From: Escherichia phage vB-Eco-KMB40
Reading direction: 5' to 3' (one strand)
DNA length: 64,000 nt
Sequence record: OR539220.1
The notes beneath the pieces are model-generated. The model ran no database searches. It saw only the letters and a list, made by a program, of their open reading frames with translations, and was not told the DNA's origin. This document shows positions 7 to 19,670 of the stretch, one piece after another. The position numbers and the translations under genes were made by a program. Each line of letters opens with the position of its first letter. Positions within the stretch are counted from its first letter, which is position 1.

Positions 7-2184
7 TTAGGCCGCAAGGGCCTTCATAGTTTTGGCGATTTGGGAAACTTCATCATCACTTAAAGAGTTGCGATATCCGATGAAGTCGGAAACAATACGG
101 AATTTCTTGGTAAACTCAGCAACCATTTTATCACTGTTTTTTGAAGCATTATTTGATAATACATCAAAAAGATTAGTTACTGTCCAGATGTCATGACCGA
201 TGGTATCTTTTCCACCATTAAAATATACACCACGCAATGAACTAACTATATTAGCGAGTCGTGTATATTCTTCAGAAACTTCATCTGTACTGAAGTACTT
301 CATCATAAAATCTAGTTCAGGATACTTGATAATTTTATCAATATATCGTTGAGCTGAACTTGAATAACCTACGTACTTATCATAATCTACATCATCAAAA
401 GCATCTACATATAAATCACGCAAAGCTTCAAAAATACATTGGCACTGACCGAGTTCTTTTACCTTTTTCTGTAAAAGCGGACGAATAACATAAAATTCAT
501 TAATGCCAATAAGATTAGCCATACGAATCAAAATATTCATAGATGGATGACAGAGAGATGTAGTACCATCCATAGAGAAAATATCAGAACGATGCATATA
601 CGCTACATAACCAGTAATTTCATCTGCTTCTGACGTAAGTGTAAATAGTTCCTCTTTTTCCCAGCGCCCATCTTTAATTTCAAACTTAAATGCTGTAGCA
701 GCTTTAGGACGAGGAGCTTTACTTTTAACTATCTTTGGAATATAGCTTTTAACTAAAGCTTCAATTTCTGACAAATAATGAATGTTAACTTCATCACTTT
801 CAAACATCGCCATAATATCAGGAAGCAAATCAATCTGCGATTCTACTTCTGGATTAATAAACAGAAGACGCTCATTGTGATGAATATTCAAAGTGTTATT
901 AAATTCACTATCATCTAACGCATGTGCTAATCCACGGACAATATTAACACGATTTTTAATATTATCAATAACGATATTAATTTTTGTTGTATTGATACCA
1001 AACAGACGATAACTTGATGCAACGGCTGAAGTTTCATGACTTTGCTTAATGCGTTTCAGTCGAGGGTCAAGATTTACTTCATACACAACTCCTGCATTAC
1101 ATAACTTACTATCAGGTTCAAACATGCTCTGCATCTTTTTATATGACAGATTTTTAGTCGTGAATTTGACTGAATTACTAATCATATAATCTCGAGCAGA
1201 ATACCCCATCTTCATTAATTCGCGATATGTATGACGAGGAGATGTAGATTCTTTAAATCGTTTTACATCTTCATTAAATGCTTTCTCACTGAGTTCTTTA
1301 ACTCGTTCAATGATATTTTTACGAGTGCGATCATCTAGTGAAAGAGCCTCGCGAGATGGAGCAATATCAAGTGAACCCATTGGAAACTTAATGTAATTCA
1401 CTTCATTGCGAATGCTTAGCCAGTTACGGTCTCTAATAACACCATCGATAGGATAAACAATACCGCCATAGATAGCATATAATCCACCACGATCAGGCCA
1501 GTATCTTTCTGGATTTACACCATAATAATCATCAAAATCAGGAAAATAATCAATTTCGCGGTCAAGACCATTAATGATAGCCAAATCTTTGAACGGTCGC
1601 ATAATATAAGAAACTTCATAAGCAAAGTTTCTAAAGTCTTTTTCTTCAACTGGAACTACGATTTCAATACCAGTTTTATCATCTGGACCCATTTCTTTTA
1701 CGAATGTAGGTTTAATTTGTGGACCATCGCCATCCATGTAAGCTACATAACCACGAATTTCACCTTTATGATACGAAGTAATACTAAACGTATCAGTATA
1801 ACTAAACGGAGATTTAGAACCTAAACCAAATCCGCCAATAAAGTCATTAGATTCAGCCTTAGATGAACTGAAGTATGAATTATACAACCCAGGAGAATTA
1901 TCATCACCTTGAATATCAAAATCACTCATACCCGGACCAAAATCTCGACAAACAAATCGTGGGTCTAATCGTCCTGGAACTTGTATGATAAATTTTTCAG
2001 GATTTCCATTGAGAGCATGGGCATCAATCATGTTAGTAATTAATTCACGGACTACTGCGCGAATCTTGTTTGTATACAAATCAGATGACAGAATTTTAAA
2101 TACTTTAGGAGATGCTGTGATGCTAAATGCTTTTGATTTAGAACCATTACCAAGAATTGTTTCTTTTTCAGTGGTGATAATCAT
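7..2184 (-). CDS. rIIA: rIIA protein (725 aa)
   Basis: 725-aa ORF, same length as T4 rIIA, N-terminal ATPase-like region; followed by rIIA.1 and gene 39 as in T4. Confidence 0.9.
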
Positions 2185-5579: not shown

Positions 5580-6068
5580 TTATGCATAGAGAGCATTGCT
5601 ATAGTGTTTAATCCAGCTTTCAGGAATGACTTTGTATGTTCCTAAAAATACCACATTGTACAGCTTAACACCATCTTCTACCCATTGATCAGTAATGTAT
5701 GCACACATAGCGCGAGTATAACAAGCCTTTCCATCATCTTTGATAAATTTAAATTCACAAGGAGCAATGAACTTGATAGCCTGACCGAGTTTCCACTTAA
5801 AGTCTACACCTACATGCGAAGTATCAATCGTTTCAATTCCTTTAGCGGGAACAGCTTTCAAAAACGCAGGCTCAAGAAATTTCGCACGAACATAGCCAAA
5901 CTGAGGTTTAGACTTTCCATCCTTAGGAATAATACGCACTTTTACTTCAGAATCTTCATCTTTAACGCCATGTTTAAGCTGAATGCTTACAATTTCAACC
6001 AATTTTCCTGCTGCTTTAGAACGGGATTTATCAGATACACGAGCAATTTCACCAATATTAATAATCAT
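5580..6068 (-). CDS. motB: MotB-like protein (162 aa)
   Basis: 162 aa as T4 MotB; position between cef-like ORF and dexA. Confidence 0.6.
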   Translation of the reverse strand: MIINIGEIARVSDKSRSKAAGKLVEIVSIQLKHGVKDEDSEVKVRIIPKDGKSKPQFGYVRAKFLEPAFLKAVPAKGIETIDTSHVGVDFKWKLGQAIKFIAPCEFKFIKDDGKACYTRAMCAYITDQWVEDGVKLYNVVFLGTYKVIPESWIKHYSNALYA

Positions 6069-6112
6069 AGTTATCTCTCACTTGTTAAAAAGATTTTATA
6101 CTCCACAGGACC

Positions 6113-6142
6113 ATTATACTCTGGTCCCAAGAGTTTGTAAAC
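6113..6142 (-). promoter_or_regulatory. early sigma70-type promoter
   Basis: GTTTAC at 6137-6142, TATAAT at 6113-6118; upstream of motB. Confidence 0.55.
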
Positions 6143-6144
6143 TA

Positions 6145-6687
6145 TTACTTCAAAATAGCTACCACCGCACTACGAGGTACTACACTAAAATCACCTGCAT
6201 GAACAACGTTCAGAAGTTCAACACCATCTTCAATCCACTGGTCTGTTACCCAACCACAGACCGAAATAAATGGAGTCTTGATAGCTACAGCACGAGTTAG
6301 AAGGTCGGTAGGGTCTTGTTCTTCAACTTCTTGGAACAGGATGAACTCATCTTCATAAACCAGGTTTTTCTTTATTTTGTTATTATCTAACCGGCGACCG
6401 TGGATGACGTAAGATTTGTCAAACCACTCACTTTTGGCAAATTCTTCAACAATAAATTCGCCTTCGCCAAAAACATCAGTCAGAGTTTTATGACCGGAAA
6501 TCAAGGCATTAGTTTTAATTTTAGGTTCAACCAGTTTGTAGGTTTTGCCGATTTCAATAGTGGTAGTCATAGTAGGTTCCTTAATTTCCAGTGGTTTAAC
6601 AGGGCATACATAAGTGCTTACAACATCAAAATCAATCAGTTTAGCTACCGGATTCGATATGTATTCAGGATTATAATTAAATTTCAT
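6145..6687 (-). CDS. MotB paralogue (180 aa)
   Basis: C-terminus VTDQWIEDGVELLNVVHAGDFSVVP resembles motB ITDQWVEDGVKLYNVVFLGTYKVIP. Confidence 0.5.
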   Translation of the reverse strand: MKFNYNPEYISNPVAKLIDFDVVSTYVCPVKPLEIKEPTMTTTIEIGKTYKLVEPKIKTNALISGHKTLTDVFGEGEFIVEEFAKSEWFDKSYVIHGRRLDNNKIKKNLVYEDEFILFQEVEEQDPTDLLTRAVAIKTPFISVCGWVTDQWIEDGVELLNVVHAGDFSVVPRSAVVAILK

Positions 6688-6689
6688 AA

Positions 6690-7190
6690 TTATCTCATTT
6701 CAATAAAATCTACAAGTTCAGCATGGGATTTACGGAACATTACCTGGCGTCCGCCAATGATAACTTCATCTTCAGGAACTTCATATACGGCGAGATAAAA
6801 TCCTTTAGAAGATAATTCTTCCCGCTCTTCTCGTGTGAACCATCTCATCATATCATATTCACTAGCGAAAGCAAAATGATAAAGAGCTATAAACCATCCT
6901 GGAATATGATATTCTACTCCAACATAATCTTTCTTGAACTTAGTATTAATTACTATATTAGCGTTTTTAACTAATAGTTTATCTTCGTGTGGTAAAGGAA
7001 TTCTTTTATTATCATCGCTATGATGCATAAAATTAGGTCTGTCATAACCTACGTGTAATAGCCACTCTTCGCTCCATGAATCTATTATACTCCTGTACGG
7101 CGTTATTTGAACACAAAGATTTCGACGTATTGTTATAGCATCTTCATAATCAAGAATACTAAACGATGATTCAACACGATAAATTTTCAT
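6690..7190 (-). CDS. hypothetical protein (166 aa)
   Basis: track ORF 6690..7229 trimmed to ATG at 7190 with SD GAGGA, because promoter -10 lies at 7218-7223. Confidence 0.45.
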   Translation of the reverse strand: MKIYRVESSFSILDYEDAITIRRNLCVQITPYRSIIDSWSEEWLLHVGYDRPNFMHHSDDNKRIPLPHEDKLLVKNANIVINTKFKKDYVGVEYHIPGWFIALYHFAFASEYDMMRWFTREEREELSSKGFYLAVYEVPEDEVIIGGRQVMFRKSHAELVDFIEMR

Positions 7191-14639: not shown

Positions 14640-14780
14640 TTACAATTTAGCGGCTTTCCAGAGTTGTTCAATAATCTCTTGGTCTATTTCTTTAGTTATT
14701 TCATTACGTAATAAAGCAGTAAGGGCTTTCGCCCTTTTCTTATTCAACTTTTTGAGTTGACGTTTATTTAAACGAGACAT
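14640..14780 (-). CDS. hypothetical basic small protein (46 aa), not in ORF track
   Basis: MSRLNKRQLKKLNKKRAKALTALLRNEI...; ATG overlaps gene 56 stop; occupies soc-56 interval where T4 has segF. Confidence 0.4.
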   Translation of the reverse strand: MSRLNKRQLKKLNKKRAKALTALLRNEITKEIDQEIIEQLWKAAKL

Positions 14781-15369: not shown

Positions 15370-15570
15370 ATGGTACAAAAATTAATGGCACTTATTAATG
15401 CCATAAAAGGTAATAAAAAGCGTATAGCTTTTACTATTTCTGCTATGGTAGGAATTTTACTCTGGAACTTTATTTTATCACCTGTTGCAATTGCGCATGG
15501 TATTAATATTCCAGTAGTTACTCTTGATACATTCGTAGATTTAGCATTTGCTTTAGTTGGGTTAATTTAA
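15370..15570 (+). CDS. small hydrophobic protein (66 aa), only convincing plus-strand gene here
   Basis: strong SD AAGGAGG 4 nt before ATG; two hydrophobic segments; fills the 56-61 intergenic gap; stop overlaps primase stop. Confidence 0.5.
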   Translation: MVQKLMALINAIKGNKKRIAFTISAMVGILLWNFILSPVAIAHGINIPVVTLDTFVDLAFALVGLI

Positions 15571-16595
15571 ATCTTAGCATATTTAGATAACCGCATTTTA
15601 GCCATCAACCCCTGGGCAATATTATTTTTCATATATTCCATAATTTGTTCAGGGGTTGCACCTTCCTTTCTAATCATATCATTAACATCTTTTGATTTCC
15701 AGGGAGATTTATCCCAAAACATAACCCTTTCTCCTGCATCAACTAATTTAGTCATTCGCTTAATAGTGTCAGGATGACGAGGTTCATTATCTAAAACCCA
15801 CACACGTCTATCTTTAAATGGAACAACTTCTAGGTCTAATTGACCACCCGTAATAGCTATACCATTTTCAATAAAAAGTGAATCTATAGGTCCTTCTAGA
15901 ACATATACATCGCCATCTTTAACTCGTTCGACTCCATATATTTTTGTTGCCTCAGGATAAGCCTTAATGGTGATATATTTTTGAGGAGCATCTTTCTTTA
16001 ATGCACGTCCTTGAAAAGACTCAGCTTTTCCATTAGCATTATAAATTGGAATAACAAGACGAGGCTCAGAAATTTCCTTTTTGTATGTTCCCGGTGCTAT
16101 GCTATTAACTAATTTAGGCCATTCGGTTGTAAACCAAAGATATTTCCATTTATCCTTTGGAATACAACGAGCTTTTACATATTTTATAATTGGATGGTCT
16201 TCCGCCAGTTTATCTAATCTAACGCATGACGGAAGAGATTTAATTATTTTCTTCTCAGGTTGTTTAGGAAGTTCTTTAGGTTTTTCTACTGGACGACTTT
16301 TACCTTTTTCTTTTCTTATTTCAAAGATATACTCACGATATAAATCAGGTTCAAACTCCTTTAAATATATTCCGATTGGCGCATGATAGTTACAGTTATA
16401 ACAATGAATATTTCCTTCATTATTATCACCATAATACCATCCACGAGCTTTATTCTGGTCGGTTTTTGAATCTCCACAAACAGGACATCTAAACCGCAAT
16501 TTAAAAGTTGAACTATTATTTACTTGTGTGAATTTAGGTAAATGAGCTAATGCACGGTATGCAAACTCATTATCAATCCAAGGTATTGATGACAT
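15567..16595 (-). CDS. 61: DNA primase (342 aa)
   Basis: zinc ribbon CPVCGDS...CYNC, 342 aa as T4 gp61. Confidence 0.9.
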   Translation of the reverse strand: MSSIPWIDNEFAYRALAHLPKFTQVNNSSTFKLRFRCPVCGDSKTDQNKARGWYYGDNNEGNIHCYNCNYHAPIGIYLKEFEPDLYREYIFEIRKEKGKSRPVEKPKELPKQPEKKIIKSLPSCVRLDKLAEDHPIIKYVKARCIPKDKWKYLWFTTEWPKLVNSIAPGTYKKEISEPRLVIPIYNANGKAESFQGRALKKDAPQKYITIKAYPEATKIYGVERVKDGDVYVLEGPIDSLFIENGIAITGGQLDLEVVPFKDRRVWVLDNEPRHPDTIKRMTKLVDAGERVMFWDKSPWKSKDVNDMIRKEGATPEQIMEYMKNNIAQGLMAKMRLSKYAKI

Positions 16596-16761
16596 TTTTA
16601 CTCTTCTTTTTCTTTAGATTCCTCTTTTTCTTTTTAGGAATCTGTTCAGGGCCTTTATTTACTACAGCGCCTGACGTTGTTCCAGTAGAGATATTTTCAG
16701 GATTACCACCTGAATCTCCAGCGACCATATCTTCTTTGATAAATTCTTTATATGTTTTCAT
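16573..16761 (-). CDS. 61.1-position protein with capsid-targeting-like N-terminus (62 aa)
   Basis: N-terminus MKTYKEFIKE resembles internal-protein targeting sequence MKTYQEFIAE; SD GAGG. Confidence 0.5.
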   Translation of the reverse strand: MKTYKEFIKEDMVAGDSGGNPENISTGTTSGAVVNKGPEQIPKKKKRNLKKKKSKNVINTLD

Positions 16762-16762
16762 A

Positions 16763-17389
16763 TTAACCTCTATTCATAAAAGCATTAAAAATTTGGTCAT
16801 CAATAGAAACATTTACGTTAGACTGTTTTTCAGATGGCAATTCATATCCACATATTACAATTTTATGATCAATATCAAAATACACAGAAGCAATATGATT
16901 AATGATATTTTCAGTGAAGTCTAAATCGACATCAATATCTTTTTGACCACAGCCCAAAGGATAAATAATGCGAGTAATTCGATTATCTTTAACAAATATT
17001 CCACCGACATACTCTGTACTGCGTTTAAAGTCTACACGCCGACGAAATGAAAAATATTCAGGCTCTTTATGAGCTCGGCTCATAGGACACAACGAATAAC
17101 TAGAATAAGAGATGTCAAATCCTACGCCTTCGATATGAGCCAAAGTGTCATGATTAAACCAATTATAATCGTACGCCAAATCCATTAGATTATAATATGT
17201 AAAAGGCACCGGATTAACATCATTAGTCACAAGCATGTAATTAGCAACTGCTATAATTTCATTGTTTTTAACGAATACAAACCGTGATTGATGCGAATGA
17301 CCTGGACCCGCGTTTTCACGATTAATGATATAACACTGGGCACCTTTATATTTGTATGTATCTTTGCACTTGTGCATTTGATAGAGCAT
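16763..17389 (-). CDS. 61.2-position protein (208 aa); possible AdfA homologue
   Basis: 208-aa ORF downstream of primase; name by position and recollection only. Confidence 0.35.
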   Translation of the reverse strand: MLYQMHKCKDTYKYKGAQCYIINRENAGPGHSHQSRFVFVKNNEIIAVANYMLVTNDVNPVPFTYYNLMDLAYDYNWFNHDTLAHIEGVGFDISYSSYSLCPMSRAHKEPEYFSFRRRVDFKRSTEYVGGIFVKDNRITRIIYPLGCGQKDIDVDLDFTENIINHIASVYFDIDHKIVICGYELPSEKQSNVNVSIDDQIFNAFMNRG

Positions 17390-17682
17390 TATTCACCTAC
17401 CACTTCAGCGATGATATTTTTGTTATTAAAGTTTTTATCGCAATACAGAACATAATTATACTGCATTACACCACCAGACTTAAGCTGTTTTTGCACTTCA
17501 GCTTTCATTTCAGGACGATCGCGCTCAACAATATTCATAATATCCGCTTCAATTTGAGTTTCAACCTCAGTCTGATCAGCAGTCATAGACCATTCGCACA
17601 AATCTTTATCATAACCTGCCATAGCAGGCTGAGCAGCACAAGAAGCTAAAGCAAAAATTGTAGCAAAGATAAATTTTTTCAT
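17389..17682 (-). CDS. predicted lipoprotein (97 aa)
   Basis: signal peptide with lipobox LASC. Confidence 0.5.
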   Translation of the reverse strand: MKKFIFATIFALASCAAQPAMAGYDKDLCEWSMTADQTEVETQIEADIMNIVERDRPEMKAEVQKQLKSGGVMQYNYVLYCDKNFNNKNIIAEVVGE

Positions 17683-17710
17683 GATAATCTCCTCAGTAGT
17701 TTATGTTTAT

Positions 17711-17740
17711 ATAGTATCTCAATTTCCAACAAAAGTAAAC
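17711..17740 (-). promoter_or_regulatory. early sigma70-type promoter
   Basis: GTTTAC at 17735-17740, TACTAT at 17711-17716. Confidence 0.5.
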
Positions 17741-17742
17741 AG

Positions 17743-18000
17743 TTATTTTAAAACTTCTGTGTAATCACATGTTACAAACTGTTTCTCTAGCTTGACGATT
17801 TTACGAAAGTATCTTTTACATTGACGAATCTGTCGCTTAGTAGGGCGCACAGCAAACTTAATAAATTCCACTCGACCAAATGGAGGGCTTTCTTCTGATG
17901 GAATATCTAACACCAATTCCCACGTATCCGCAATAAGTGCTTTGAATTGAGTATTTTTCCTGACGTTATACGGAGTAGGTTTAAATAAAACAATATGCAT
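17743..18000 (-). CDS. tifA: 61.4-position basic protein (85 aa); possible TifA
   Basis: ATG at 18000 with SD GAGGA overlapping dmd stop gives 85 aa; immediately downstream of dmd; name from recollection. Confidence 0.4.
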   Translation of the reverse strand: MHIVLFKPTPYNVRKNTQFKALIADTWELVLDIPSEESPPFGRVEFIKFAVRPTKRQIRQCKRYFRKIVKLEKQFVTCDYTEVLK

Positions 18001-18001
18001 A

Positions 18002-18184
18002 TTATCCTCGGCAATCCACTTCGCACACTTTCTTGTCATCAATGAAAGCTTTAACTAATGCTTTATTAACTTCAGCATATTGAGTAGTAGCCCATTGAAC
18101 GTCATCTTTCATCATTGTGATTTCTTTAGTAAACATGCTTTCATTCTTAAACCACCCCATAAAAACTACCTTTACCAATTCCAT
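18002..18184 (-). CDS. dmd: Dmd, anti-RnlA/LsoA antitoxin mimic (60 aa)
   Basis: 60-aa ORF between 61.4 and 41, size and position of T4 dmd. Confidence 0.7.
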   Translation of the reverse strand: MELVKVVFMGWFKNESMFTKEITMMKDDVQWATTQYAEVNKALVKAFIDDKKVCEVDCRG

Positions 18185-18213: not shown

Positions 18214-18243
18214 ACTATACCATAGTCTTGTCAGTTTGTAAAC
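18214..18243 (-). promoter_or_regulatory. early sigma70-type promoter for dmd
   Basis: GTTTAC at 18238-18243, TATAGT at 18214-18219, SD AGGAG downstream. Confidence 0.55.
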
Positions 18244-19670
18244 TAAAATTTTAATTCATTTGCCAAAGCATCTAACTGAGCTCGAGTGGATTCATTTCTT
18301 TGATAGCGATTCTGTTCAGCCTGAATCTGTTGTGAACCTGCTACTTCACTCACTTCGGTTGGAGTAGAATCTTGTTCAATTTCTACCCATTTTTGATTTC
18401 CTTTTTGAACACCCATCAAAAACTTATTCCACTTATTCTTATCACCATATCGTGATTTGATTTGCTTAATAAGTTGTTGTTCAGCAGCTGCCAACTCCTC
18501 GGTTTCAATGACCGCAAGCATAAAATCGGCTGTCGCTGGAAGACCAGCAGATTCTGCGATATCACTCATGTTAACATCAGAAGAATCCCAAGCTTGTTTA
18601 CCAACCTGTGCTGCAGTCCAAAGAACAGTTTCGGTTTCAACAGCCAGAGCACGCAATTCCTCTGCGATAGCTTTAACAGTTGTGTAACTATTTTCTGAAT
18701 AAACTCTAATGCGGCAAGATTTACAAATACCTAGATAGTCGACAATAATGATTGTTGGAACAAAATTCTTCTTGAGCTTTAATTCATTTAAAAGTGATCG
18801 AAATGTATTAGCGTCTGCTCCACCAGTAGGATATTGTTTAACGATTAAACGACCGAGAGTAGATTTCTCACGCCATTTTTCCATTTTTCCTTTATACTCA
18901 GCGTAAGAAATATGCCCATCATCAATGTCATCAAGAGAAACATCGAGCATATTAGCGTCAATACGTTTAGCACAGACTTCTTCTGCCATTTCCATGGAGA
19001 TATAAAGAACGTTATGACCAAGCTGCAAATAATCTGCTGCTAATGAACAAAGTCCTAATGATTTACCAACGTTAACGCCAGCCATTAAAACGTTCAGTGT
19101 TCCTGTTTCAGCTCCGCCTTTAGTAATTTTATTCAAAATACGAAGTTTAAATGGAACTTTACGAGCTTTATTCATATAAGATAGCCAACGTGCTTCGTAG
19201 TCATCCATCCAATCATGACCAACGTAGCTATCAAATGAAATTGATAATGCTTGGCGCATGATGTCAGGAATAGCACCAACATCCGGCATTTTCTTATTTC
19301 GTTTTTCCGGAGGAAGTTCAGCATTAGTTTGAATTTCGATTATTTTAGACGTAGCATTAAACATCGCCCTTTGCTGAACATATTTTTCTGTTTCTTTTAC
19401 TAACCAGCTGTGGTCTTCTGGAGAATCGGCTAGTTTTGAAATAAGTGTTTTTACACCAGAATATTCCGTTTCAGTAAATGAACTATTTTCTAATGCAACA
19501 TTTAACGCATTAATAGATGGAACGCTATGATACTCATTAACATGAGATTTAATTAATTTGAACGTATTTTTAGCTGGACCACTTTCAAAATATTCTGAAT
19601 CCATATATGGCCAAACTTTTGAAAAATAAGCTTGATCAAATATGAGATGAGAAAGAATAATTTCTACCAC
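18243..19670 (-). CDS. 41: replicative DNA helicase, DnaB-like (475 aa)
   Basis: 475 aa as T4 gp41; Walker A GVNVGKS. Confidence 0.9.
   Translation of the reverse strand: MVEIILSHLIFDQAYFSKVWPYMDSEYFESGPAKNTFKLIKSHVNEYHSVPSINALNVALENSSFTETEYSGVKTLISKLADSPEDHSWLVKETEKYVQQRAMFNATSKIIEIQTNAELPPEKRNKKMPDVGAIPDIMRQALSISFDSYVGHDWMDDYEARWLSYMNKARKVPFKLRILNKITKGGAETGTLNVLMAGVNVGKSLGLCSLAADYLQLGHNVLYISMEMAEEVCAKRIDANMLDVSLDDIDDGHISYAEYKGKMEKWREKSTLGRLIVKQYPTGGADANTFRSLLNELKLKKNFVPTIIIVDYLGICKSCRIRVYSENSYTTVKAIAEELRALAVETETVLWTAAQVGKQAWDSSDVNMSDIAESAGLPATADFMLAVIETEELAAAEQQLIKQIKSRYGDKNKWNKFLMGVQKGNQKWVEIEQDSTPTEVSEVAGSQQIQAEQNRYQRNESTRAQLDALANELKF

Follow-up and report, generated by a model that had tools for sequence, protein, structure and literature searches.

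A close counterpart of the T4 anti-TA island between the helicase and primase genes of Escherichia phage vB-Eco-KMB40

Anti-toxin genes of T4 and its relatives

The T4 region that carries dmd, 61.4, and 61.2 was named the 'anti-TA island' by Srikant et al. 2022 (PMC9391042). In this region, gene 61.4, coding for an 85-aa inhibitor of ToxN (a type III toxin), was renamed tifA (Srikant et al. 2022, eLife, PMC9391042), while gene 61.2 became adfA, encoding an anti-DarT factor (PMC9391042). The same paper refers to Otsuka & Yonesaki 2012 and to Wan 2016 for the demonstration that T4 Dmd binds and neutralises both RnlA and LsoA. It further assigns an early T4 promoter to the dmd-61.4 pair and mentions a promoter downstream of tifA (PMC9391042). 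Additionally, the authors of the eLife study suggested other genes of the region as possible further anti-toxin factors (PMC9391042).

A single native copy of tifA encoding F41 is sufficient against toxIN on the chromosome, whereas plasmid-borne toxIN is not overcome and selects tandem amplification of dmd-tifA (PMC9391042). RNA binding by TifA occurs through a basic helix at the C-terminus with a Pro-Thr cap (Guegler et al. 2023, PMC10853763), and mutations of P53/T54 or K55/R56/R59 abolish both RNA binding and ToxN inhibition (PMC10853763). The potency of TifA is tuned by residue 41, at which Phe is weaker than Ser or His, and homologues vary in strength and specificity; those of T2 and T6, which exceed 96% identity to the T4 protein, are active (PMC10853763). 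For AdfA, His at position 164 of the RB69 protein (R164H) marks the allele that neutralises DarT1 (PMC11257639, published as PMC11825919). The block also encodes Spackle, a periplasmic protein that, according to PMC7677548, inhibits the tail lysozyme gp5 of T-even phages attempting superinfection.

Gene identities and arrangement in the window

We analysed a stretch of 64,000 nucleotides from Escherichia phage vB-Eco-KMB40 (OR539220.1), hereafter the window. Over 24 kb, its closest record was FriedrichZschokke (97.7% identical), and at the locus itself we found DNA-level matches in 539 phage records, with Shigella phage Sf24 at the top (98.8%). Judged by its sequence, the window derives from a Tequatrovirus, a T4-like phage but not T4 itself. 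We are highly confident that the small early minus-strand genes between genes 41 and 61 correspond to the anti-TA island of Tequatrovirus. The features of the locus are listed below in the order of transcription.

18243-19670, minus strand: helicase gene 41, 475 aa (ORF listing and direct reading)
18214..18242, minus strand: early sigma-70-type promoter predicted for the dmd-tifA bicistron, with an A/T-rich stretch followed by TTTACA, a 17-nt spacer, and a TG-extended TATAGT
18002-18184, minus strand: dmd (gene 61.5), 60 aa (ORF listing and direct reading)
17743-18000, counted from its ATG, minus strand: tifA (gene 61.4), 85 aa
17684..17735, minus strand: region between tifA and sp, with GTTTAC...TACTAT as a weaker promoter-like element and GAGGAG as the ribosome-binding site of sp (direct reading)
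17389-17682, minus strand: sp (gene 61.3, spackle), 97 aa
16763-17389, minus strand: adfA (gene 61.2), 208 aa
16573-16761, minus strand: gene 61.1, 62 aa, the last small ORF in the block
15567-16595, minus strand: primase gene 61, 342 aa

Along transcription, the order 41, dmd, 61.4, sp, 61.2, 61.1, 61 is that of the T4 annotation (NC_000866). The genes dmd, tifA, and adfA all lie inside 1.42 kb (16763-18184), and the flanking proteins gp41 and gp61 are identical to their T4 counterparts at 474/475 and 340/342 positions, respectively, in global alignments. A preliminary description of this DNA had proposed the T4 61.x layout, which the gene order bears out, and the lengths and coordinates that it gave for three minus-strand ORFs (60, 85, and 208 aa) were recovered by the ORF listing. 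It had also placed the cluster downstream of primase. Along transcription, however, the cluster lies upstream of gene 61, and it is merely to the right of this gene on the plus strand. Its inventory was correct for dmd, 61.4, and 61.2, but omitted the 97-aa spackle gene at 17389-17682.

The GC skew is below zero across the whole region, consistent with coding on the minus strand. ORFs on the plus strand of the interval (for example 16550-16924, 124 aa) were taken as shadows of the minus-strand genes, because the skew is negative and because T4, RB18, and Sf24 annotate only minus-strand genes there.

The Dmd protein of the window is identical to T4 Dmd at all 60 positions of a global alignment. 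It matches Pfam PF17587 over residues 1-60 of 60 with 156.9 bits (cut-off 27) and PDB 5hy3 chain B, 'Antitoxin Dmd', with E = 1.8e-37; the second Dmd-type structure, 5i8j, is that of a homologue. The 85-aa protein shares 82/85 residues with T4 gp61.4, the changes in the global alignment being A35S, A81T, and I83V, and it is 100% identical to the Sf24 protein. It also matches Pfam DUF7279 (72.6 bits, cut-off 24.5) and PHROG 2375 (E = 5e-38). The 208-aa protein is identical to T4 gp61.2 at 201 positions (96.6%, global alignment), with P62, Y66, T82, A84, C147, S190, and N191 as the residues specific to the window in this comparison. It aligns over its full length (1-208) with the 211-position Pfam model PF23813 (AdfA) at 450.3 bits (cut-off 27), and its best record is 99.5% identical. 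Homologues of TifA and AdfA were present in 657 and 486 phage records, respectively, in both cases nearly all Tevenvirinae of enterobacteria. Searches by sequence found no solved structure for TifA or for AdfA.

These comparisons bear on the names that the preliminary description had offered, namely Dmd as an RnlA inhibitor, an anti-ToxIN TifA for 61.4, and AdfA for 61.2. The identities of 96.6%, 96.5%, and 100% to T4 gp61.2, gp61.4, and Dmd uphold all three, in agreement with PMC9391042 on RnlA inhibition by Dmd and on the tifA and adfA names. The 85-aa protein had further been described as basic and as overlapping the dmd stop codon. The former is correct (pI 9.83; 17 K+R versus 9 D+E), whereas the latter is not, since the dmd/tifA junction reads GGA TAA T ATG, leaving a 1-nt gap, as in T4.

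We also considered the possibility that these are chance ORFs in AT-rich DNA whose likeness to T4 is positional only. This was rejected in view of the 96-100% identity to the T4 proteins, the Pfam matches, and the presence of the locus in hundreds of phage genomes. The Pfam E-values of the four proteins range from 2e-20 to 1e-135, all of them past the gathering scores, and the PHROG assignments agree.

The promoter scan identified TTTACA-17-TATAGT with an extended TG as the best sigma-70-like site of the region (10/12 matches). This element (18242-18214) adjoins dmd upstream, where the preliminary description had placed an early promoter, and its hexamers are the same in T4 and Sf24. Behind it, dmd is the first gene after the helicase gene 41, with a GAGGAG Shine-Dalgarno sequence upstream of its ATG; tifA follows directly 3', in the co-operonic arrangement known from T4. 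The tifA-sp intergenic stretch is 100% identical to those of T4 and Sf24. The promoter role of its GTTTAC...TACTAT element is putative, because the element scores under the threshold of the scanner. Further along, the stop codon of sp overlaps the start codon of adfA in TAATG, sharing base 17389. A Shine-Dalgarno sequence precedes the start codon of each gene in the block, and this feature, together with the abutting or overlapping junctions (TAA-T-ATG, TAATG), suits coupled translation. Terminator prediction yielded no intrinsic terminators delimiting the operon in this region, making read-through into 61.1 and 61 plausible, although only as a putative extension. The operon boundaries and the extent of the transcript given here are accordingly predicted ones.

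Between tifA and adfA, Sp is identical to T4 Sp at 96/97 positions (global alignment). It matches Pfam PF25676 (T4_Spackle) with 151.1 bits (cut-off 27) and PDB 6x6o with E = 8e-62, one of five solved Spackle structures (6x6o, 6xc0, 6xc1, 7cn6, and 7cn7). Its N-terminus carries a signal peptide, and the mature chain in 7cn6 begins at residue 23. Spackle serves superinfection exclusion and is not an anti-defence factor. Its presence raises the question of whether the block simply gathers miscellaneous non-essential early genes for phage physiology, such as mRNA stability and superinfection exclusion, with no dedicated counter-defence island. Spackle sits in mid-block and, according to PMC7677548, acts in superinfection exclusion; in RB69 this block is interrupted by imm and imm.1, and gene 61.1 is without known function. 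Furthermore, the T4 annotation notes record that Dmd was first described by its effect on mRNA stability. However, this dmd phenotype is explained by the inhibition of RnlA/LsoA (PMC9391042), and anti-toxin activity has been shown experimentally in T4 or RB69 for three of the five small genes. We therefore regard a block of unrelated physiological genes as highly improbable, and retain the anti-TA island as the reading of the locus.

Gene 61.1 matches PHROG 1823 (E = 3.8e-32) and encodes 62 aa, versus 54 aa in T4 and Sf24. The difference stems from one deleted A in an indel at ~16627-16637, within the run AAAAAGAA[A]AAAG, which creates a new basic C-terminus, RNLKKKKSKNVINTLD, and an overlap of 23 nt with the start of gene 61. 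An assembly error was considered as the source of this frameshift and dismissed. Three independent T6 records, G28, and G2540-3 carry the identical allele of 62 aa, and because of this recurrence we consider it natural.

Alleles and predicted activities of the anti-toxin proteins

The activities that we assign to the island are drawn from the work on T4 and RB69 and are predictions for the window. For Dmd, the 100% identity to the T4 protein suggests that RnlA and LsoA would be bound and neutralised in the same manner. For TifA, the residues at which mutation abolishes the activity of the T4 protein, P53, T54, K55, R56, and R59, are all kept (...VRPTKRQIRQCKRYFRK..., positions 53-59), and residue 41 is Phe. 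The protein therefore appears to be an allele of the T4 type whose RNA-binding helix is intact, and it would be expected to inhibit the ToxN endoribonuclease. The A35S change falls in or next to a loop reported near the ToxN interface. For AdfA, His165 of the window aligns opposite Arg164 of RB69, which indicates an allele of the active, DarT1-neutralising type. By analogy with T4 and RB69, it may bind DarT1 and block the ADP-ribosylation of DNA.

We propose the following course of events during infection. Host RNA polymerase would start at the early promoter before dmd, generating the dmd-tifA bicistron, and transcription would probably run on into sp, adfA, and 61.1, aided by the second, weaker promoter before sp. 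Dmd and TifA would be made at the onset of infection, while host shut-off lets the labile antitoxins decay. Dmd would then directly bind RnlA and LsoA, both RNase toxins, standing in for RnlB and LsoB. The basic C-terminal helix of TifA would hold RNA and ToxN together, so that ToxN is trapped on cellular RNA in an inactive ribonucleoprotein and, as proposed, phage mRNA is left uncut. AdfA is predicted to bind the ADP-ribosyltransferase DarT1, such that phage DNA is not modified. Spackle, presumably secreted to the periplasm, would block the lysozyme gp5 of T-even phages that superinfect the cell.

These expectations presuppose that the alleles of the window act on the same toxins as those studied. 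Alternatively, the genes might be true orthologues whose alleles either suit other toxin homologues or are redundant, providing little protection against RnlAB, ToxIN, and DarTG1, with protection coming from elsewhere, for example from AdfN (gp30.3). Deletion of adfA from T4, even combined with that of adfN, produced no AdfA-dependent phenotype on DarTG1 (PMC11257639), and T4-type AdfA may consequently have a different DarT homologue as its real target, as the authors of that work propose. The differences among TifA homologues in strength and specificity, with F41 as a weak allele (PMC10853763), would fit as well, as would the 7 AdfA and 3 TifA positions at which the window differs from T4. 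Conversely, Dmd does not differ from its T4 counterpart at any position, and His165 of AdfA and the basic helix of TifA are intact. T4 tifA knock-outs plate with ~100-fold lower efficiency on chromosomal toxIN (PMC9391042), and ectopically expressed T4 AdfA rescues RB69 on DarTG1 (PMC11257639). Weighing these observations, we consider such retuned or redundant alleles unlikely, and favor the T4-type activities outlined above. A combined proposal, in which TifA A35S and the seven AdfA changes shift specificity to other ToxN and DarT homologues and the T6-type 61.1 with its strongly basic tail acts as a further anti-toxin factor, seems to us more doubtful still.

The gain from this analysis lies mainly in correct annotation. 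Most public records still label the tifA and adfA orthologues 'hypothetical protein' despite their published functions, and the anti-TA island can be recognised from raw sequence alone. This is relevant to phage therapy and to the prediction of host range, as the alleles of the window yield specific expectations. The identity of Dmd to the T4 protein predicts resistance to RnlAB and LsoAB, and the F41 type of TifA predicts resistance to chromosomal toxIN together with sensitivity to high-copy toxIN. AdfA His165 points to the DarT1-neutralising type, but the lack of a phenotype upon adfA deletion in T4 tempers the contribution to be expected during infection.

Relation to the islands of T4, Sf24, RB69, and RB18/RB32

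RB69, a Mosigvirus, carries dmd, 61.4, sp, 61.2, and 61.1 between 41 and 61 in the same order as the window, but its proteins are far more divergent: its TifA has 70 aa and 40/85 identical positions, and AdfA is identical in 144 of 216 aligned columns. Its AdfA has Arg164, the non-neutralising allele, at the position where the window has His. The RB69 block also contains imm, imm.1, and ORFs 032, 033, 040, and 041 as extra genes. Both imm and imm.1 lie between sp and 61.4 (6012-6690 of the RB69 locus sequence), a placement suggesting that the block combines anti-TA genes with those for superinfection exclusion and forms a hotspot of gene gain and loss.

Tequatroviruses of the RB18/RB32 type have the same genes as the window at ~98.5% DNA identity, with an additional 118-aa ORF between 61.1 and 61.2 that is weakly similar to the C-terminal half of gp61.2 and absent from the window. 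In RB18, this ORF (1765-2121, minus strand, of the RB18 locus sequence) is annotated 'some similarity to gp61.2', and the corresponding junction of the window is at ~16762. The 118-position PHROG 4122 also aligns with the AdfA of the window over residues 112-208 (E = 2.8e-7). Judging by sequence similarity, the 118-aa ORF of RB18/RB32 may be a partial paralogue of AdfA.

Shigella phage Sf24 (MF327008) is the nearest record at the locus, with 98.8% DNA identity across 1.8 kb. Its TifA and Sp are the same as those of the window, AdfA differs at two residues and Dmd at one, and 61.1 is the 54-aa allele. Its tifA and adfA are labelled 'hypothetical protein'.

Relative to T4, the surroundings of the block differ in that the T4 neighbours dam and segF are missing from the window. 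Between genes 61 and 56 (15370-15570, plus strand), a 66-aa ORF takes the place of the T4 dam methyltransferase gene; its equivalent is annotated in RB18, in Sf24 ('predicted membrane protein'), and in RB69 (ORF029w). From soc to gene 56 (14640-14780, minus strand), the window has only a 46-aa ORF, and the T4 homing endonuclease gene segF is absent. Within the block, gene 61.1 of the window is the T6-type 62-aa frameshift allele, versus the 54-aa allele of T4. The dmd-tifA-sp-adfA region of T4 otherwise shares its genes, their order and orientation, and the flanks 41 and 61 with the window, and the promoter hexamers, the TAA-T-ATG and TAATG junctions, and the ribosome-binding sites match. The proteins are 96-100% identical, with 0 substitutions in Dmd, 3 in TifA, 1 in Sp, and 7 in AdfA. 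The system has already been described for T4 and its close relatives, and the locus presented here is a further, near-identical copy of it.
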